Shown here one piece after another: positions 19,926-61,062 of a stretch of 64,000 bases of DNA. This stretch comes from a virus: the IMG/VR virus record IMGVR_UViG_3300050343_000265, positions 1 to 64,000 of that record. The stretch is one strand, 5' to 3'. Made by a program: the position numbers and the translations under genes. Under the pieces are notes generated by a model, which was not told where the DNA came from, did not search any database, and saw nothing but the letters and a program-made list of their open reading frames with translations. Positions within the stretch are counted from its first letter, which is position 1; each line of letters begins with the position of its first letter.

Positions 19926-20312
19926 TTAAATACCTTCTTCTATTTTAGTCATCTTTTCATCAGCACGTTTTGACCATTGAAGATTATCTGCACGGCAATC
20001 TTTTTTGTTGCTGTTGATATGTTTAACAACGCTACAACCTTTAAGTCGCCCATATGGAGTTGGGGGTAATCCAAGAAAAGCAAATGCAACAAGAGTATGC
20101 ACAGGAATAGTTATTAACTTACGGCGTCCAATGCGTTGAGTTAAGTTTACGACTGGGTAACCACCCTTACTTATTTTCTGCTTAAGAATCCTTTCGATCC
20201 TTCCCTTAGTACTTTTAATAAGACCTTTTTGGTTTACATAGTACTCAATGCAGCACTCAAAACCCGGCAATGTATGCACAGGGATCCATTCATTATTGTC
20301 TATAAAGTCCAT
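19926..20312 (-). CDS. NUMOD4-HNH family protein (degenerate HNH)
   Basis: EWIPV..YYVNQKGLIKS..GYPVVNL..VHTLVAFAF..HINSNKKDCRADNLQW. Confidence 0.75.
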   Translation of the reverse strand: MDFIDNNEWIPVHTLPGFECCIEYYVNQKGLIKSTKGRIERILKQKISKGGYPVVNLTQRIGRRKLITIPVHTLVAFAFLGLPPTPYGRLKGCSVVKHINSNKKDCRADNLQWSKRADEKMTKIEEGI

Positions 20313-20426
20313 ATAACCAAGTATTCTGGGGTATCTAAATAATATTATAGCGGTAACTATTAACATCAGTATATGTGACTAGTCGAAGTCACTTATAAAC
20401 CTTTTAGCTTACGGAGTTAGAAATCC

Positions 20427-49136: not shown

Positions 49137-50441
49137 CTAGTGAGTAGCAGCCCAGTTTTCACCATGATCAGCTGATGCAGCCATAGGTACTCGCAGGTTG
49201 TAGTACTTACCAGCCTCAGGTGCTGCTGCTTCTAACAACCGTTTCATTCGATCAACCTCAGCAGGTACTACAGACATCTGAACTTCATCGTGTACGTAAG
49301 CGCAGCGAGTGTAGTCACGGTCATAGGTAAGTCCCGCATCGTCTAACATCTGCTGTCCAATTACCACCCATCGCTTGGAGATGATTGCTCCGGCAGACTG
49401 AAGTAAGAAGTTGGGACTACTGTGCTCAGCACGACAGAATATAGGACGCCCATCAAGGCCCCTAAGACGACCAGTTGAGCGAACTTTAAGTTTAACTGCA
49501 TCTACTAATGGCTCCAATCCAGGGATAGCGTCAAGGAATTTGCGGCGGAGTTCACCGCCAAGTGTTTTCTTCTGTGCATCTGATAGCTCAGGCTGCAGAC
49601 TATGGCCAAGCTTTACATCACCTGCTCCATAAATGAATGCGTAGGTCAGCGTCTTGACTTGTGTACGTGTACATCCCACACGATCAGCATTTTGCTGGTG
49701 AATGTCACCGTTGACGACAACTTCAGCGAAGGAGCCCTGGTCAAAGGCGGCCAAGTAGTGCCCTAATAGGCGTAATTCCAGGCCTTCAAGGTCAGCTCCG
49801 ACCATTACATGACCAGGGTGAGGTACAAATAGTTCACGTGCCCATGGTGCAGATACAACCTGGCCCAAGTTGGGACCACGATGAATATTTCTAGATGTTT
49901 GAGTAGCAAGAATGCAGCTGTGGTGGATACAACCATCGTCTTCCATAGAGTTGAACCATGAATTGGTTCCCTCCGACAGCTGACCTAACCACTTCTGCAA
50001 GGTCAACAAACGAATAAACATCTCACATTCGTCATGCAGTTTTTGGTTACCAGCAGACAATGCAATGTCTCTTACTTCAGAGAGAGTTGCCTCATCAACT
50101 TTTGGCTTACCAGTCTCAGTAACTTTAGTGAAGCGTGCACCACGGAATGTTTGCAAAGCCCAAACAATATTTAGGCGTGACGTAGGGTTAAAGTCAGTCA
50201 AGCGCGTCATAGAAGCACCTGCTACATAGCCTTTCTTTTTATCAGCACGCTTTGGAGTAAATACTTTACCAGGTACGTACAGATAAATTGATTTGATTTT
50301 ATCTGTTAAATCATCAAACTCTTGCTGCAGTTTCGTACGTACACGTACAGCAGCCTCAGTGTCAAATCTAAATCCACTTGCTTCCTGCTGAGCCATAAGC
50401 TCGGCCATCCGCATTTCAAGAGCAACGTAATCAGGCATCAT
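49137..50441 (-). CDS. polA: DNA polymerase family A, polymerase domain only
   Basis: Motif A DLEGLELR, motif B KTLTYAFIYG, motif C HDE. Confidence 0.95.
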   Translation of the reverse strand: MMPDYVALEMRMAELMAQQEASGFRFDTEAAVRVRTKLQQEFDDLTDKIKSIYLYVPGKVFTPKRADKKKGYVAGASMTRLTDFNPTSRLNIVWALQTFRGARFTKVTETGKPKVDEATLSEVRDIALSAGNQKLHDECEMFIRLLTLQKWLGQLSEGTNSWFNSMEDDGCIHHSCILATQTSRNIHRGPNLGQVVSAPWARELFVPHPGHVMVGADLEGLELRLLGHYLAAFDQGSFAEVVVNGDIHQQNADRVGCTRTQVKTLTYAFIYGAGDVKLGHSLQPELSDAQKKTLGGELRRKFLDAIPGLEPLVDAVKLKVRSTGRLRGLDGRPIFCRAEHSSPNFLLQSAGAIISKRWVVIGQQMLDDAGLTYDRDYTRCAYVHDEVQMSVVPAEVDRMKRLLEAAAPEAGKYYNLRVPMAASADHGENWAATH

Positions 50442-50670
50442 TATTTTTTAGCTGGTTGAATCCAAAGTTGAGATCTTTCTCTTTAGCCGCCCTGTCTGCT
50501 CGATTCTTATGACCAAGCTTTGCTACAGACTCCATAACCTTTAAGCAGTCCTCTGTAGTAGCTCCTTCTGGCATACGCGAGTGAACGATATTAAATAGCG
50601 GAAAGAAAATCTCCGCTGCCTCTGTCATTTCTTCAGAGTTGAGTGGATCTGATTTCTTAGGAATAGTCAT
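50431..50670 (-). CDS. Hypothetical protein between the PolA halves
   Basis: AGGAG RBS; overlaps both neighbours. Confidence 0.7.
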   Translation of the reverse strand: MTIPKKSDPLNSEEMTEAAEIFFPLFNIVHSRMPEGATTEDCLKVMESVAKLGHKNRADRAAKEKDLNFGFNQLKNNDA

Positions 50671-51187
50671 TCATTCTCCTTTGCAATAGTTCGTATAGCT
50701 TTACTGTTACTTTTGTATCTTGGATGCAATAGTCAAGCATCTCAGGAGTGTAAGTAGACCAGTCATTACTGGTGTTCTTAGCAAAGTCTCCTTTGAAGCA
50801 CTTTAATCTATAGCCCCATGCCTCTAGGCTATGTGAGCCGTAGAGCCTTTGTGGCATTCCAATAGGTCTTCTTTCATAATCTCGCTCACTAATGTGAGGA
50901 TAATACAAGCGAGACAGAGTAAGTGTGTCAAGGTAAGAACCTCTTGGTGCAAACTCTGGAAACTGTTCTTTAAGAAGTGGTACATCGTATCCCAGAATAT
51001 TGTGGCCAATAAGAACATCAGCACGCTCAAGGGCTTTTACACCTTGAATGACTGCACGTTCTGGTTTGCAGTCAAAAACTTCTGCTTCTTCTACATTAGC
51101 GATATCACGAATCACAATACAGTGAATTGTAGAACCGACACGCAGTAAGCCAGTACTTTCAATATCAAATAATAGTTCAGTTGTCAT
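50657..51187 (-). CDS. Stand-alone 3'-5' exonuclease domain of a T7-like PolA
   Basis: DIES, HNILGYD, SLEAWGYRL, YCIQD. Confidence 0.93.
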   Translation of the reverse strand: MTTELLFDIESTGLLRVGSTIHCIVIRDIANVEEAEVFDCKPERAVIQGVKALERADVLIGHNILGYDVPLLKEQFPEFAPRGSYLDTLTLSRLYYPHISERDYERRPIGMPQRLYGSHSLEAWGYRLKCFKGDFAKNTSNDWSTYTPEMLDYCIQDTKVTVKLYELLQRRMNDYS

Positions 51188-51707
51188 AGATGGTTTCTAC
51201 CGCTGGTTTGTCTGGGGATGGGTCTGGATATAATTTTTTATCAATTTTACGATTGGCATGTTTGTTGACTGAGAGCCTCGGGTCTTCGTCTTCGAAGTGA
51301 GGTTCAATAGCAATGTCTAATTCGCGTGCTAGGCGTGCAGCTCTACGGAATTCATCCTTGTAGTAGGGCTCCCAGTCAGATGCAAGAACAACAATCTTTC
51401 GAATACCCATGATGTGTGCTTGAAAGACAGAGGCAGAAAAGGGATATCGCGTTGAGTAAATAGTTGCACCAGTCATAGGTGTGCCTCGCTTGCATGCGCC
51501 AGCAATGGCATAGCAAACGGGATCAATCTCTACCTGAGAGTCAGTTAGCAACGAGCGTCCATCGCCCATGATCTCTCGATCACGCACAATTACACACCCG
51601 CCAGGGCATGACGGATGAGTTGAGGCAGCTCCAACAGCTTTAGCAATATCAATAAAATGTTGCTCCTTATTTTTTATATAAGTGGGATCACCTTTAGGTG
51701 CTGTCAT
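51177..51707 (-). CDS. dCMP deaminase homologue lacking Zn ligands
   Basis: GCVIV, GATIYST, GIRKIV present; HAE and PCxxC replaced. Confidence 0.8.
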   Translation of the reverse strand: MTAPKGDPTYIKNKEQHFIDIAKAVGAASTHPSCPGGCVIVRDREIMGDGRSLLTDSQVEIDPVCYAIAGACKRGTPMTGATIYSTRYPFSASVFQAHIMGIRKIVVLASDWEPYYKDEFRRAARLARELDIAIEPHFEDEDPRLSVNKHANRKIDKKLYPDPSPDKPAVETIYDN

Positions 51708-51765
51708 ATCACATTTGGGAGTGGTTACTCTTATATTAGGTAGTGAAACACATGATTGCGGATAC

Positions 51766-52086
51766 ATGGATTACATCAAATTCACTAAAGACATGGAAGA
51801 ATATAATGATTGGAATCGTCTCGATGGACCGCACTCAGTAAACGATGCGTGGTTAGATTTTGGTACGACTGATCGTGTGCATAGCCCAAGCCATTACACA
51901 TCAGGTAAGCAGGAAGTGATTGATGTTATCGAAGACACAATCAAGAATGCACCTGACGTGACGCAAGGAATGCTTCAAGGACAAGTGATGAAATATCTGA
52001 TGCGACTATGGCTTAAGGACAACCCAGCTGAAGATGCTAAGAAAGCACGGTGGTATCTCGATCGCCTGATTAGCAAGATGAGTTAG
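51766..52086 (+). CDS. DUF3310 protein
   Basis: VHSPSHY..EVIDVI..KY..R..EDAKKARWYL. Confidence 0.88.
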   Translation: MDYIKFTKDMEEYNDWNRLDGPHSVNDAWLDFGTTDRVHSPSHYTSGKQEVIDVIEDTIKNAPDVTQGMLQGQVMKYLMRLWLKDNPAEDAKKARWYLDRLISKMS

Positions 52087-52496
52087 CACCTTACAAATCT
52101 GAATAAACCATTTTCACAAGTAAGAGTCTCATGCTCTTGCTTGTGCTCTAGTAGTTTGTTGAAGATATGATCAGAAGCAATAGAAGTGTGCTTGAACTCA
52201 ACTGTAATGCCTTGATCAAACCCTGGCAACTCTGGGTCATACCATTTAACAGGACGTAAATATTCCCATGGGTCCAAGCCCTGAGAGACCCATGCATTCA
52301 ACTCTTCTAATCGTTGTGCAGTCTTAATGATATGAGCTTCGTGAGCAATTTCAATAGGCAAGGACTTGAATTCATTATTGCTTAGCAATGCATGCTTCCA
52401 CATCAATGAACCATCCTTGTGGATCAAACGACATGGATGAACACGACTGCCAGATGGCATTGTATAGAAAGCTTCAGGAGATATATGCCTACTCAT
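52083..52496 (-). CDS. Degenerate peptidase M15A-like protein
   Basis: IIKTAQRLEE..WYDP..GITVEF; SxH..D absent. Confidence 0.5.
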   Translation of the reverse strand: MSRHISPEAFYTMPSGSRVHPCRLIHKDGSLMWKHALLSNNEFKSLPIEIAHEAHIIKTAQRLEELNAWVSQGLDPWEYLRPVKWYDPELPGFDQGITVEFKHTSIASDHIFNKLLEHKQEHETLTCENGLFRFVRC

Positions 52497-53167
52497 TACA
52501 CGTCTCCCCTGTGCTCTTCGTAATGTTCTAGGTCTTTGAACCAGTTATCACCAGCATACTCATTGTATATAATCCTACCGATGTCACGGAAGGTGTTATG
52601 GAATAAAGTGACCTTATCAATATCACTAATGGTTGCATCCAAAGGTGGGCCATAGATTAATACATTCCAGGTTGAAGGGCAAACTGATTCAAAGCCCTTA
52701 GAAGTAGCTCGAAGTTGTTTAATGCGACGAAAAGGAATACAAACAGGATAATCCCATATAACCGGAGTCGCTCTGACGATTTCTGATGCACTAGTAAAAA
52801 ATACAAAACTGTTTATATGGTTATTGCGATACTCATTAATAGTTTTGTTTAACCACACACGAGTGTTTCGCACTGCACCCTTAGGTGCTACCCAGACATT
52901 TCCATGCCAGTGTTCCTGGAGTGGGTTTGTCTCCAACGATGGAACAGACGTTGCATCTACCAATACCTGCTGAACAGGATCAGATGTTGGGTCATAGTCG
53001 ATAGAGCCCATGACTTGACGAGCTCTTTCGATTAATTGCGGCGTTGGATAAAGAGGTAGTTTTAAACCACTCTCTTTAAGCTTAGCTTGTAAATTCTGCT
53101 GCGAGCGCTCGGAAGCCTTCTTGGCTCCCACCTGCTTCGACTGCAAATGTTCTTGTTCCAGCATCAC
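52496..53167 (-). CDS. Phage N6-adenine methyltransferase homologue with altered catalytic motif
   Basis: YPTP..IDYDP..WHGNVWVAPKG in place of VWLNPPY. Confidence 0.72.
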   Translation of the reverse strand: MMLEQEHLQSKQVGAKKASERSQQNLQAKLKESGLKLPLYPTPQLIERARQVMGSIDYDPTSDPVQQVLVDATSVPSLETNPLQEHWHGNVWVAPKGAVRNTRVWLNKTINEYRNNHINSFVFFTSASEIVRATPVIWDYPVCIPFRRIKQLRATSKGFESVCPSTWNVLIYGPPLDATISDIDKVTLFHNTFRDIGRIIYNEYAGDNWFKDLEHYEEHRGDV

Positions 53168-53504
53168 TGATCAAGGTAATTAGTACATTTTTTGACCAGT
53201 CATTCTCATCAATTTCTTCCAGCAGTTTACGCAGGAACTCAACTACATCGGTGTCTTCATTCGCTTCTGCAGCATTAATATCTGCTTCCAGTGAAGTGCC
53301 TGACATAAAAGTAGTAGAGTCGTTGCACAGATTAATTACCAGTGACCCTGCACCTTCTGCAAGCACTCCATTTGAAGCGATATTAATTAGATCAGTAAGA
53401 ATCAGTTCAGCAGTAGCAGCAAGAAACTTTTGCTCTTGCTCCTTCTCTTCTCCGAATTTGTCTGAATGAATTAATTGCTGAAGTAGATCTGTACGTCTAG
53501 ACAT
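53082..53504 (-). CDS. Acidic hypothetical protein
   Basis: ORF. Confidence 0.7.
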   Translation of the reverse strand: MSRRTDLLQQLIHSDKFGEEKEQEQKFLAATAELILTDLINIASNGVLAEGAGSLVINLCNDSTTFMSGTSLEADINAAEANEDTDVVEFLRKLLEEIDENDWSKNVLITLISDAGTRTFAVEAGGSQEGFRALAAEFTS

Positions 53505-53536
53505 AATGTAATGACTCTTTCAATAGGATAAGTTAA

Positions 53537-54352
53537 TTAAAACTCTGATGTGGGATCTTCATCATTAGTTTCGTGATCTTCTGGTTGTTCAAACAAGCCT
53601 GGAGAATCTGGTTTCGTCTGACTGATGTGACGTCCGTTAAGCATATCTACCATGACAGCTTCAAAACGTTCATCAAACATTGAGTTTGGATTAAGTATGA
53701 GATCTTCCCGTTGATCCAACCCTTCAGACATAGCAATCTTCTCCTGTTCTTTTACTGCTTGCTGGATCATATACTCAGCAATCTGTTGCCTTAGTGTATG
53801 CAACTCACATGCAAGTTCAAAACTTTCTAGATAGCTATCGTGGTCTACAAATACCCCAATATTTTGAGGAATAAGATGGAAGGGATTGCAACAATACTTG
53901 TTCCCACAAGTAGTTTTAACACCAGTGAATCCAAGATCACCCCATGTAAACCACATCGCAACACGTTGAGGATGGTGCTGTGTCGATGATGAGATGCCAT
54001 GCCTTCTCCATGCAAATTGAGGTTGCTTAGTTCTTTTATTTATGCATCCGTTCCATTCCCAGCATTCATCTGGATCAGCCATGTCTACTAATGACCAGAA
54101 CCTAAGAGCTTTTACTCGATTCTTTTTTAGTAACTTTGATATATCAAAGGACATTCGCCCTTCACGTGCACCGGCTACGCAGCGAACACAAGCCTGGTGG
54201 CTGTCATAGCGCATGCTGTGGGAAGAGAATCTCCCAAGGGAATGTCCTGAGTAAAGGCAAAGCTCTCCCTCCTCAGCTGTATTAGACATCTGTTTGACGC
54301 GCCTGCCATAAGCATGACCGCCAACTTTTTTAGAAGGTTGAGCCTCAGCCAT
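53537..54352 (-). CDS. HNH (zinc-loop) endonuclease homologue lacking catalytic His
   Basis: ECWEWNG..PQR..KTTCGNKYCCNPFHL. Confidence 0.75.
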   Translation of the reverse strand: MAEAQPSKKVGGHAYGRRVKQMSNTAEEGELCLYSGHSLGRFSSHSMRYDSHQACVRCVAGAREGRMSFDISKLLKKNRVKALRFWSLVDMADPDECWEWNGCINKRTKQPQFAWRRHGISSSTQHHPQRVAMWFTWGDLGFTGVKTTCGNKYCCNPFHLIPQNIGVFVDHDSYLESFELACELHTLRQQIAEYMIQQAVKEQEKIAMSEGLDQREDLILNPNSMFDERFEAVMVDMLNGRHISQTKPDSPGLFEQPEDHETNDEDPTSEF

Positions 54353-54588
54353 TAGAAAGATCCCTCAGGTTTTACATATGTCCCACCATGAGGTGGGTAT
54401 TGATCTTCAGTGTCGAGTGATTCGAGTTGATTATTAATCATGTACTCGTAACGAGTGGAGTTCTCGTATTTGATTCGAACTAATTTTGAGCTTGGGGTGT
54501 AATACTCTGGTCGTCCAACAACCAAAGCATTCATCCCATTAGTTTGCACACGGACACGCAGCCCAATTTTGATATCGGAAGCAAGCAT
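54352..54588 (-). CDS. Small SH3-like beta protein
   Basis: IKIGLRVRV..LVRIKY pattern. Confidence 0.6.
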   Translation of the reverse strand: MLASDIKIGLRVRVQTNGMNALVVGRPEYYTPSSKLVRIKYENSTRYEYMINNQLESLDTEDQYPPHGGTYVKPEGSF

Positions 54589-54617: not shown

Positions 54618-56852
54618 TTAGAAGTCGTTCAAGATATGGGATTCATCTAAAGGATCATCCTTTGGACGTTGCCAAATACGAATCGATTTAGATTTACCAT
54701 TAGCGTCTTTCCTGCTTGTTACCAAACGACGCCACCCCATTGACTGAAGTACATCAGCAACACGGCGTCCTTCACGACGTGACTGGTTGCGAGGGTCAAG
54801 CTCCAGTGCATGTGTAAGCACATCGGCTGCAGTGACCTCTTGCTTGATTGAAACGTAAGCTCCAATCTTGTCTAACCAAGGATCTGGATCACCAAACTCT
54901 TGGATGTATTCCGAGATTGCAGCAATCTCACCACTGTTGAATTCATATCCAACGCCGCTACGGTAAGCATGTACCGCCGCTGCCCATAGACTATCTCGTT
55001 CTTGCTCTAATTGCTTCCAAGGAATCTGAAATCCTCCTGCAATTTCTAGTGGAACGAATCGTCTATTGCCAGTACTGTCAACAAGAAATTGATTCCTATT
55101 GGTAGTACCAATCATCACAAAGCGACGTGGCAACTTCGATGGGAGTGATGCATATGGATAACGAACCTCATCTACCCGACTTGTGATTAGGTTCTTAAAG
55201 TTCTCAATGTTCCTGACATTGAAGTAGTTATCAATCTCAGGTAGCTCAAGCAGCCATGCCATATGCAGGCGGTACTGCTCTTTCATCAGAGTCTCCAAGG
55301 GAATGGTGATCTCTGCGAACAGGGCATCAGGTACCAAGTTCCTTGCGAACATGGACTTACCTACACCCTGAGCACCCACAAGAATGGGTAGCCAGGACAT
55401 GGATGCACCTGGGTTGTAGGCACGAGCTACTGCACCAATCATCATGCGTTGCATGGCAAGAGTTGCTAGCTGATGCTTGTTACCTAGGAAGACTTCTCCA
55501 ATACGGTCCCAATCTTTATGTGGGATCGCATGTGCTGCACAACTATCGAGGTACCGAGTGATCGGGCAGTAACCGTTTTTACCTGCTGCGTACTGAATAG
55601 CTGACTTGATACGCGGCTCAGGAATGAAGACCCCGTACTCACAAGCAAGCTTGGTAGTCATGATGTCTAGGTCATTACCTTCGAGCTGAACAACTTTCCC
55701 GTTGGGGTCGTCATACTCAATGGCATTCGTAAGTCTGTTCTTACGTAGACCAGTCAAGATTGCTTTGACTTTATCTACGTCAGCCTCACGTTCTTTGGCA
55801 GCATCATCACTGCTTTTCTTTGGTCGTCCACGTTTGGCAACCTTTTTGGAATCCGGTAAGGGTTCCGGTTCAAACTGCATAGTTTCTCCTTTTGCTTGTC
55901 GTATAACCTCTTCAAAACTGACCAAAGGATCAGTCTCTGTATAACCAACTGCTCCACCAGATGCACCAAAGCGCACATCACGGGGAAGCTTACTAGTCCA
56001 ATTAGGATCTTGCTTTTTTGCAAGCGAATACAGTTTAGTATGCCCAGCATATTTGCCGAGACCTTTCCACTTAAACGCACGAATGTTTTCTTCTTTGTGA
56101 CCGTGGTGGCCACGAATGACCCAGTCAACCCAGTCATCAAATAGAACGCCACCTACGCCAGCACAAGCTGCCATGACAGGCACGTAGTAAGACTCGTACT
56201 CATCGTCATCAGATGGACGCAGGAACTCTCGAAGGAGCCACTGACATCGTCTTACGTCAATATCCTCACAGTCTGAATGTACAAACTCTGTAGGTTCGTC
56301 GTAATCAATGTCAGTCAGTAGGAATTCAGGAACCAATGCACCATCATTAAGACGATGACGGGTAGCTGTATTGCCATACCAAAGGCGCTCAGGCTTTTGT
56401 CCGCAGTTATCTTTGAGATCATCGAGCTGCAGATCGGCAAGCAAACGGTTAACGATTAACCAGTAAGCACCACGATGCTGTCTAGAAGATTCAAGATCAA
56501 TTTCTAATGCAAAGATTGCACGGAATCTGTGCTCTTCTTCTGTGTGACTTGCAGAAGTATAAGTAGCAAGGCACCACTCTTTAGCAGTTGTGGTTTCCCA
56601 AAACTTATCAAGAGTAGTGTCGCCATCAAAGTCAATGACAATGATGTTGCTACCAGCTGCATTATCTGCACGCCTGTGTCGATCAATAAAATGAGTGGCG
56701 CACCAGCCGTAGCCATGCTCCACCCATCCAAGTAGCCAGTCAATGCTGACTAATACATTTGACCAACCACGAGCAACCAGTTGTGGGTTGCTTTTATTTT
56801 GGCAGTTCTTATTGACTGCTATCTTCAGTATCTTTTGCACTCTCCATCTCAT
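54618..56852 (-). CDS. Primase-helicase (prim-pol, PriCT-2-like, VapE/VirE P-loop ATPase)
   Basis: IDFD, YTSASH, HRFR; GAQGVGKS; GTTN..DSTGNRRF. Confidence 0.9.
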   Translation of the reverse strand: MRWRVQKILKIAVNKNCQNKSNPQLVARGWSNVLVSIDWLLGWVEHGYGWCATHFIDRHRRADNAAGSNIIVIDFDGDTTLDKFWETTTAKEWCLATYTSASHTEEEHRFRAIFALEIDLESSRQHRGAYWLIVNRLLADLQLDDLKDNCGQKPERLWYGNTATRHRLNDGALVPEFLLTDIDYDEPTEFVHSDCEDIDVRRCQWLLREFLRPSDDDEYESYYVPVMAACAGVGGVLFDDWVDWVIRGHHGHKEENIRAFKWKGLGKYAGHTKLYSLAKKQDPNWTSKLPRDVRFGASGGAVGYTETDPLVSFEEVIRQAKGETMQFEPEPLPDSKKVAKRGRPKKSSDDAAKEREADVDKVKAILTGLRKNRLTNAIEYDDPNGKVVQLEGNDLDIMTTKLACEYGVFIPEPRIKSAIQYAAGKNGYCPITRYLDSCAAHAIPHKDWDRIGEVFLGNKHQLATLAMQRMMIGAVARAYNPGASMSWLPILVGAQGVGKSMFARNLVPDALFAEITIPLETLMKEQYRLHMAWLLELPEIDNYFNVRNIENFKNLITSRVDEVRYPYASLPSKLPRRFVMIGTTNRNQFLVDSTGNRRFVPLEIAGGFQIPWKQLEQERDSLWAAAVHAYRSGVGYEFNSGEIAAISEYIQEFGDPDPWLDKIGAYVSIKQEVTAADVLTHALELDPRNQSRREGRRVADVLQSMGWRRLVTSRKDANGKSKSIRIWQRPKDDPLDESHILNDF

Positions 56853-60438: not shown

Positions 60439-61062
60439 TTAAGACCACATGGCGCGAGATATAGTTGGTAATTCTGTGTCAAGAATCTCTCCGATCTGTC
60501 TAGCAATTTGTGAGTGCTCGACTTGAGTCCCATGACTGGCTCGCAGATCAATATAGTGCAGCCAACTTCGTATAGTGCCTGACATATACATCCTAGTTTT
60601 GGTACTTAGAGGAAGGACGTTACGTGCACATTCTTTAGCAACACCATAAGCGAGCAGCTTTTTGTATAAAGAGTTTGACTTATTGTTATGCAAAGTGATC
60701 ATATCCTGTAATTCTTCTGATAGCTCTTCAGGAAAATCATCAATAGAATTTTGGCGATTATCTAAGTCCTGTCTACGAAGTTGGGGTACTTCTATTTCAG
60801 TGACTTCTGCATAGCGCTGAGAGAACTCTTGAAATGAGAACGATCTGTGCCTGAGGATTTGCGCTCCAATAGCTCTTGTAGTCTGAATCTCGACGCACAT
60901 GGACGCCATTTCGAATGGACTCCAGTGCTTGTGCTTGATGAGATATTTGATGAGACGTTCGACATTGGGATTATCCTCGTTAGCTGGATTGGATACTCGG
61001 GCAAGTTTGCCGATTAATCTTTCGGCATCAGGTGTTACCCATACCAGTTTAGCTGTGTGCAT
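60439..61062 (-). CDS. thyX: Flavin-dependent thymidylate synthase
   Basis: HWSPFE, RHRSFSFQEFSQRY. Confidence 0.97.
   Translation of the reverse strand: MHTAKLVWVTPDAERLIGKLARVSNPANEDNPNVERLIKYLIKHKHWSPFEMASMCVEIQTTRAIGAQILRHRSFSFQEFSQRYAEVTEIEVPQLRRQDLDNRQNSIDDFPEELSEELQDMITLHNNKSNSLYKKLLAYGVAKECARNVLPLSTKTRMYMSGTIRSWLHYIDLRASHGTQVEHSQIARQIGEILDTELPTISRAMWS

Follow-up and report, generated by a model that had tools for sequence, protein, structure and literature searches.

The DNA analysed here, hereafter the window, is the first 64 kb (64,000 nucleotides) of the viral record IMGVR_UViG_3300050343_000265. Between positions 51177 and 54352, within a DNA replication module, it encodes four proteins that are traced here to ancestral enzymes: ORF1 to a dCMP deaminase, ORF2 to an M15/LAS zinc peptidase, ORF3 to a phage Dam N6-adenine methyltransferase and ORF4 to an HNH_3 homing-type nuclease. 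In each of them the catalytic motif of the family has been altered. The four proteins are probably functional, and non-catalytic for the ancestral reaction; they form a cassette that was built up gradually, within a module that is a normal place for enzymes of these kinds. The motif substitutions of all four ORFs are fixed across 58-75 unique homologues per family (the sets over which homologue columns were counted), and ratios of non-synonymous to synonymous substitution (dN/dS) are 0.08-0.20, a pattern that exceeds chance. A sequence-only reading had proposed that four uninterrupted, same-strand ORFs with these folds are present here. All four are found where it placed them, on the minus strand (Table 1), and all four fold assignments hold.

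Catalytic motifs of the four proteins

No match to ORF3 was found in searches of Pfam (E<=1), PHROGs, NCBIfam and PDB sequences, and a six-frame search of the phage's own genome with PF05869, the phage-type Dam family, was empty, ORF3 included. An exhaustive HMMER profile search nevertheless recovered 3160 relatives at E<=1e-3, and 33 of the 54 relatives that were aligned match PF05869. The layout of the family is xYTP, G-x-I-D-L-D-P-A-S, W-x-G-x-V-W-h-N-P-P-[YG]-G and C-h-x-x-x-R-h. Alignment of the ORF3 family to relatives carrying NPPY was highly significant (hhalign 99.9%, E 3.8e-33, 30% identity over 164 columns) and matched NVWVAPKG of ORF3 to NVWLNPPY of the relatives. This direct profile alignment upholds the view of ORF3 as a phage Dam-like protein in which NPPY has become APKG. 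Within the clade, motif IV reads [A/S]PKG, the K and G being present in 66/66 sequences. The motif-I-like I-D-[YF]-D-P-T-S, a putative S-adenosylmethionine (SAM) pocket, is invariant or nearly so. Besides the xYTP motif, ORF3 shares with the phage-type Dam N6-adenine DNA methyltransferases I-D-L-D-P-A-S-type, W-x-G-N-V-W and C-[IF]-x-x-x-R-[IL] motifs. However, it differs from them in motif IV, falls below Pfam detection, and lies on a non-NPPY branch of its own, which occurs only on related phage contigs of 65-94 kb and in which the gene always follows an acidic one.

Three groups emerged from a motif survey of the Dam relatives: one with the canonical NPPY, a large one with NPPGG, and one, including ORF3, in which motif IV is degenerate. 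In a maximum-likelihood tree of 128 sequences (quick and unrooted), 21 non-NPPY sequences were split from 107 NPPY/NPPG sequences with a support of 96 in the SH-like approximate likelihood ratio test (SH-aLRT). A single old loss of NPPY in the ORF3 branch is consistent with this unrooted tree, which does not prove it.

As a separate observation, ~46 of the 128 Dam-family relatives carry NPPGG and not NPPY, and form a nearly pure clade (46/47, SH-aLRT 86). This group is apparently a large, uncharacterised subfamily without the aromatic residue of motif IV.

ORF1 has the cytidine-deaminase fold, and the earlier assignment to the dCMP deaminases stands. Its match to PF00383 (dCMP_cyt_deam_1) scores 21.6 bits, below the gathering threshold of 25, and NCBIfam returns just weak RibD/ComEB matches. 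A PF00383 search of the phage's own genome was empty, and tblastn found no match to ORF1 in cultured phages. The family profile, searched against PDB, matches the RibD deaminase domain (E 3e-5) with other deaminases weaker, and it aligns with intact dCMP deaminases of sister phages (hhalign 97%, E 7e-11, 34% identity). Regarding the start codon, relatives carry stops in the first ~20 codons of the longest frame and conservation begins at Met21 (51707), which is taken as the start in place of 51767. The gene therefore spans 51177-51707 and does not overlap the divergent DUF3310 gene.

A closer inspection of the ORF1 motifs reveals a mixed outcome for the HAE motif, which had been reported as absent. 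The zinc-ligand His is indeed gone in 57/58 homologues (K 46, Q 9, N 2, H 1; Q in this phage), but the Glu stays. It is invariant (Glu60, 58/58) and is paired with the HAE Glu by hhalign, the motif reading K/Q-V-E. The second reported change, PCxxC to PFSAS, is seen throughout the family: P, F and S of P-F-S-A-S are invariant or nearly so, the Cys ligand positions being F in 58/58 and S in 57/58. Against intact deaminases, hhalign shows the CxxC loop as deleted, together with the segment after GYNG, and ORF1 has GDGRS where dCMP deaminases have GYNGLP. ORF1 thus resembles the dCMP deaminases of sister cyanophages (PF00383) in its fold, its N-terminal hairpin (STHP..PGGCVVVRDREI-G), its C-terminal helix region and its membership of the module. 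It differs from them in having lost the His, both Cys ligands, the CxxC loop and GYNG, with the Glu alone kept; moreover, ~15 residues before HAE are deleted and the gene has moved beside the polymerase exonuclease. Inactive deaminase subunits of the Tad3/ADAT3 type lose the Glu and keep the zinc, which is the reverse of the ORF1 pattern.

ORF4 itself has no Pfam match. Its residues 77-162 match several PHROG HNH families (E 2.6e-9 to 1.8e-6), and tblastn retrieves annotated HNH genes of actinophages, haloviruses and a Sphingopyxis phage, which are HNH_3 (PF13392) or zf-His_Me_endon (PF05551) proteins according to Pfam. Verified HNH_3 proteins read A-H-R-V-A and x-H-x-C-D-N-x-x-C-V-N-P-x-H-L where ORF4 reads P-Q-R-V-A and T-T-C-G-N-K-Y-C-C-N-P-F-H-L. 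Comparison with these bona fide proteins confirms that ORF4 is an HNH protein in which AHR has changed to PQR and HxC to TTC, with the structural Cys kept, as had been noticed from the sequence. The aHR His is replaced by Q in 67/67 homologues and the HxC His by T in 64/67 (S in 2, N in 1), while C97, C149, C154, C155, N156, P157 and H159 are invariant (67/67). By analogy with I-HmuI, we take the His of xHxC to be the catalytic general base. The N-terminal region contains a conserved Cys/His set (C32, H37, C55, C58) that is possibly a zinc finger, and the C-terminal tail is helical and acidic.

ORF4 has the C-W-x-W, W-G-D and C-x-N-x-x-C-x-N-P-x-H-L scaffold in common with the HNH_3 / zf-His_Me_endon homing endonucleases (I-HmuI group); it departs from them in its additional N-terminal Cys/His region, its long tail and an insertion that takes the place of the GYG motif. 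In the classification of His-Me finger proteins, loss of the xHxC His marks lost nuclease function, and the Smad MH1 domain is a degraded His-Me endonuclease that still binds DNA (PMC5714182). ORF4 is like Smad MH1 in that the catalytic His is lost and the zinc-stabilised scaffold kept, although the two belong to no common sequence family. Matches of ORF2, ORF3 and ORF4 to PDB sequences (FlgI, a gasdermin, HNF4) were discarded as noise, and a match to NRC2a as a coiled-coil match to the ORF4 tail.

ORF2, read as M15A-like, had been the weakest of the four assignments, and its support is structural. At the sequence level, no family was found in Pfam, PHROG or NCBIfam, a PF08291 search of the genome returned nothing, and neither single-sequence nor profile searches of PDB sequences gave anything credible; there was likewise no tblastn match in cultured phages and no usable match in the ESM Atlas. 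The AlphaFold2 (AF2) model has a predicted local distance difference test score (pLDDT) of 82.8. In a VIA scan of 48,161 PDB chains, which is independent of Foldseek, the model matched 1lbu (the zinc DD-peptidase of S. albus) first, with Z 6.8 over 105 residues. Further matches were to Hedgehog N-domains (ShhN, 6.5-6.7), VldE, DacB, Ply500, LysB4, MepA, LdcB, T5 endolysin, VanXY, VanY and VanX, with at least 10 further LAS enzymes in the top 30. The top matches in BFVD were viral proteins labelled 'Peptidase M15A C-terminal domain' (prob 1.0, TM 0.52-0.59). Foldseek on PDB gave Hedgehog matches at E ~0.05 only, and these were accepted solely because VIA and BFVD agreed. The model thus shows LAS fold similarity, at middling Z-scores that do not prove common descent.

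The absence of zinc ligands from ORF2 is also supported. With the ligand numbering that we assume for 1lbu and ShhN, His-x6-Asp...His would be placed near ORF2 positions 93, 100 and 134, in a register set by the alignment end-points (model 137 = 1lbu 201 = ShhN 186) and the motif frame, with an error of ~1 residue. The columns at these places are L/F, Y/E/F and F, and no His-x6-Asp...His is conserved. ORF2 shares a long helix and an antiparallel sheet with the LAS / MEROPS M15 zinc peptidases and the Hedgehog N-terminal domain. In contrast to the peptidases it has no sequence-level family match and no conserved zinc ligands, and its gene belongs to a replication and not a lysis module, the phage having a separate lysozyme.

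Conservation and selection

Relatives in IMG/VR numbered 169 for ORF3 and 44 for ORF1. The whole gene order is kept in ~45 long loci, among which polymerase identity ranges from 60 to 99%. Median dN/dS (pairwise Nei-Gojobori) was 0.13 for ORF1, 0.20 for ORF2, 0.08 for ORF3 and 0.10 for ORF4, against benchmarks of 0.10 for the polymerase (polA) and 0.08 for the exonuclease. With values this low, and near that of the polymerase, the four genes are under selection and not decaying; moreover, no true internal stops were found in them across dozens of genomes. The sequence-only proposal of domesticated pseudoenzymes rather than decay is therefore borne out by dN/dS, by the shared gene order and by the fixed losses. 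Synteny, conserved catalytic loss and dN/dS below 1, the checks on which that proposal hung, all hold within the clade.

Gene decay through in-frame stops was considered and rejected, because the ORF1 stops precede the real start and the ORF3 stops are confined to a single contig (L106). A recoded genetic code was dropped on the same explanation. The ORF3 copy on that contig (L106:4480-5145) contains four in-frame stops in codons 107-128, while the near-identical contig L107 is intact; the stops are probably a local assembly or frameshift error.

Several gene junctions are tight. TAATG joins g78 to ORF4 and ORF3 to ORF2, and ORF1 ends 11 nt inside the exonuclease gene. An acidic protein (acidic140) is encoded by a gene whose 3′ end is shared, in another frame, with the first ~28 codons of ORF3; both frames are conserved in this 83-nt dual-coding overlap (53082-53164). 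In sister lineages, which are without the N-terminal extension of ORF3, this is reduced to a ~4-nt overlap or a small gap. The acidic140 gene is always directly upstream of an ORF3-like gene, in this clade, in the sister lineages and in the cultured cyanophage S-EIVl. Taken together, the junctions and the deep adjacency suggest functional pairs. The acidic protein has no family match in Pfam, PHROGs or NCBIfam and no usable match in the ESM Atlas.

Sister lineages and the age of the losses

A scan that used the nearest non-NPPY relatives of ORF3 as queries returned ~46 loci on other viral contigs of 65-94 kb. Hidden Markov model searches of these sister lineages gave the order primase-helicase, ORF1-like, g78, ORF4-like, 2-3 kb of other genes, acidic140-like, ORF3-like and often ORF2-like. 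The acidic140-ORF3 and g78-ORF4 pairs are always adjacent, here included. The sister-lineage counterpart of ORF1 is a dCMP deaminase in which GYNGLP, T-V-H-A-E and T-C-S-Q-C are all intact (PF00383 E 1e-17 to 1e-20). By contrast, the 'aHR' His is never present in their ORF4-like proteins, and their ORF2-like proteins have no H/D/H pattern. In Synechococcus phage S-EIVl, a cultured polar cyanophage from freshwater, an acidic ORF is followed by an ORF3-like gene that is already degenerate, and a 225-aa ORF4-like gene shows the same His losses (V-Q-K and S-R-T-C). A dCTP deaminase of the dUTPase fold adjoins the ORF3-like gene, and no ORF1- or ORF2-like gene was detectable in this phage.

The ORF4-like ORF of S-EIVl (L114:6875-7552, corresponding to KJ410740.1 7027-7704, complement) is annotated as a 146-aa protein and two tiny ORFs on the opposite strand. 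The public annotation appears to miss the N-terminal half of this gene.

Judged from these sequences, the losses differ in age, those in ORF2, ORF3 and ORF4 being old. The conversion of ORF1 is recent and clade-specific, because the sister lineages keep an intact dCMP deaminase in the same module. A single targeted loss at the level of the cluster, as the sequence-only reading had it, is not borne out: ORF2-, ORF3- and ORF4-like proteins are already degenerate in distant sisters, the ORF1 zinc site was lost later and in this clade only, and the cluster is thus not one coordinated event. Both the comparison with sister lineages that dates the ORF1 conversion and the finding that the cluster arose through more than one event are new here.

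ThyX is present, and searches of the phage's own genome for a dCTP deaminase (DCD), a dUTPase and an active dCMP deaminase were empty. It follows that dUMP would have to come from the host.

Genomic context

The window is taken from a viral record that is rated complete, a single contig of 83,953 bp with direct terminal repeats. A family scan of 114 further ORFs, the replication-module genes being scanned separately, identified psbA, ThyX, class I ribonucleotide reductase, a sigma-70 factor and an integrase, marking the virus as a cyanophage. Also encoded are an endonuclease VII, a lysozyme and a cyanophage outer-membrane-protein-like barrel. The source is a complete, uncultured 84-kb marine cyanophage. 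No close relative at the DNA level was found among cultured phages (blastn), and the polymerase is ~45% identical to T7-like cyanophage polymerases.

On the minus strand the module runs from a PD-(D/E)XK-like gene (g250) through the primase/VapE helicase, g78, ORF4, acidic140, ORF3 and ORF2. After the plus-strand DUF3310 gene it continues with ORF1, the polymerase exonuclease, a small ORF and the polymerase. The DUF3310 and acidic140 genes also lie in the interval and were missing from the sequence-only list. The DUF3310 gene converges on ORF2, which it overlaps by 4 nt, and diverges from ORF1, an arrangement kept throughout the clade; its dN/dS is 0.22. Elsewhere, inside the plus-strand late region, lies a homing-type endonuclease gene of the canonical HNH_3 (+NUMOD4) kind that scores above the Pfam cut-off, so that the phage apparently has an active HNH_3 gene besides the degenerate ORF4.

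Table 1. Positions, in the window, of the four ORFs and of the other features discussed.
Feature	Positions	Strand	Length (aa)	Remarks
ORF1	51177-51707	-	176	pseudo-dCMP-deaminase, cytidine-deaminase fold
ORF2	52083-52496	-	137	LAS / M15-peptidase-like fold without His-Asp-His zinc ligands; start overlaps ORF3 stop (TAATG)
ORF3	52496-53164	-	222	Dam (PF05869)-like pseudo-methyltransferase; motif IV NPPY to APKG
ORF4	53537-54352	-	271	degenerate HNH_3 His-Me finger (residues ~85-163); both conserved His replaced
acidic140	53082-53504	-	140	pI 4.2; 26 D+E vs 10 K+R; dN/dS 0.17
g78	54352-54588	-	78	no known family; stop overlaps ORF4 start (TAATG); always directly upstream of an ORF4-like gene
DUF3310 gene	51766-52086	+	106	PF11753 E 4e-16; PHROGs label 'nucleotide kinase'
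Primase / VapE-type helicase	54618-56852	-		PF05272 E 1.5e-49; PHROG DNA helicase/primase; upstream flank of module
Split family-A DNA polymerase	49137-51187	-		PF00476 E 4e-26; PHROG DNA polymerase and exonuclease subunit; downstream flank
 exonuclease	50657-51187	-
 small ORF	50431-50670	-
 polymerase	49137-50441	-
ThyX	60439-61062	-
HNH_3 (+NUMOD4) endonuclease	19926-20366	-		homing-type

Over positions 53018-53304 (short piece 53090-53165), metatranscriptome contigs (four runs, one seawater sample) add up to a depth 3-7x that of neighbouring bins. This excess probably arises because conservation among co-occurring strains is highest in the dual-coding stretch; a small RNA is another possibility.

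Possible roles of the four proteins

Binding is the most likely mode of action of the four proteins, which would serve as accessory components of the replication and nucleotide machinery of the phage. The individual roles that may be proposed are each tentative, none being rated as better than a fairly weak possibility. ORF4, with a zinc-stabilised His-Me scaffold that lacks the general-base His, may be a DNA-binding protein in the manner of MH1, with g78 as its partner and maybe an origin or a promoter as its target. ORF3 may be a DNA- or SAM-binding pseudo-methyltransferase that acts with its ever-adjacent acidic partner; METTL14, a catalytically dead partner with a methyltransferase fold, offers an analogy for ORF3 only. 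ORF1 could be a non-catalytic remnant of the dCMP deaminase of the lineage, with an oligomeric, scaffolding or regulatory role and translational coupling to the exonuclease gene. ORF2, coupled to ORF3, might serve as a LAS domain that binds a ligand or a protein. Seawater metatranscriptome contigs from one sample span most of the module and are compatible with its expression.

There is a small chance that the proteins assemble into dedicated complexes without catalysis, one of acidic140 with ORF3 (and perhaps ORF2) and one of g78 with ORF4, to which ORF1 may be added on the polymerase/ThyX side, and that these have taken on a regulatory or counter-defence role specific to the superclade. In such complexes the dead Dam would, for example, read or shield host-type methylation sites on replicating phage DNA, and the dead dCMP deaminase would co-assemble with, and inactivate, a host defence of the deaminase type.

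A number of observations weigh against a purely non-catalytic role, and several of them equally favour the alternative that at least one of the four keeps catalysis through other residues or has switched reaction. ORF1 retains, in the invariant Glu60, a catalytic-type Glu that could permit residual or new chemistry. The motif-I-like DPTS of ORF3, and its many invariant polar residues, could do the same; moreover, its AF2 model is unusable (pLDDT 41, from a 22-sequence alignment). ORF4 retains the metal-ligand-type N156/H159 and, just upstream, an invariant H126-H127, and the HxC His is retained in some ORF4-like proteins of sister lineages. The ORF2 ligand register is approximate, being inferred from end-points and motif frame and not from coordinates, and the clade-invariant H20, C22, H55, H103 and C137 could form a new site. 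Lastly, neither transcription nor its strand or level can be read from contigs of an RNA library. Examples of such new enzymes might be ORF3 methylating or binding another substrate via the retained motif I, ORF4 nicking DNA via H126/H127 and ORF2 with a metal site newly formed from His/Cys. This is in keeping with the strong purifying selection that acts on many polar residues, and with the large NPPGG subgroup of Dam, which shows that motif IV tolerates change. However, ORF1 is without all three zinc ligands and the CxxC loop, and motif IV of the ORF3 group varies by lineage (APKG, GAPTG, AAPPS, HPHPN and others), unlike a conserved catalytic loop. The clade-invariant His/Cys of ORF2 are not conserved in sister lineages, and the residue at the HxC position differs freely among ORF4-like proteins (H/T/A/P/N/S/R), which is what would be seen if selection does not act on catalysis. 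Retained or new catalysis is therefore considered unlikely, and accessory binding remains the preferred explanation.

The sequence-only reading had suggested, next to nucleotide sponges and a regulatory complex as further candidate roles, anti-defence decoys or inhibitors. On the anti-defence account the deaminase would poison or mimic host defences of the deaminase type such as AvcD-like enzymes, the Dam and its acidic partner would either block restriction-modification or tie up SAM, and the HNH protein would occupy nuclease targets. Pseudoenzymes are well suited to dominant-negative action, and the low pI of acidic140 is reminiscent of the DNA-mimic anti-restriction proteins, which are very acidic. 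A defence based on a deaminase, AvcD, does exist (PMC10511110). On the other hand, PADLOC gave no relevant match and hence no similarity to support this account. The genes lie in the core replication module, are translationally coupled to replication genes and are conserved like the polymerase, whereas anti-defence genes are usually variable and accessory. Moreover, genes like ORF3 and ORF4 belong to the core of a superclade of phages that is very broad and includes a freshwater polar phage. An anti-defence role is consequently rated as rather improbable. That the pattern is not real, and arises from chance fold resemblance or decaying pseudogenes, could draw on the lack of a significant Pfam match for ORF2, ORF3 and ORF4, the sub-threshold one for ORF1 and the middling Z of ORF2, but is effectively refuted, and exceedingly improbable, given the profile alignments of ORF3 and ORF1, the PHROG matches and motif alignment of ORF4, the recurrence of one fold family for ORF2 in two libraries, and the low dN/dS and intact frames across dozens of genomes.

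Significance

The lineage is abundant in marine viromes; ORF3 alone is represented by hundreds of 90%-identity clusters in addition to its viral-contig relatives. Automatic labels such as deaminase, methylase, peptidase and HNH nuclease would credit this phage with abilities that are probably absent. Viral pseudoenzymes have hardly been described, a full-text literature search combining pseudoenzyme and bacteriophage returning nothing relevant, and this locus offers four. It further delimits a non-NPPY branch of Dam, hitherto without a name, that has an obligate acidic partner. Moreover, a natural control is built in, since the dCMP deaminase is active in the sister lineages and dead here. If the proteins do act in dedicated complexes, ORF1 would be a rare switch from enzyme to pseudoenzyme that can be dated between living sister lineages. 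Should a function be found for the four proteins, it would bear on how the replication modules of cyanophages are regulated or protected.

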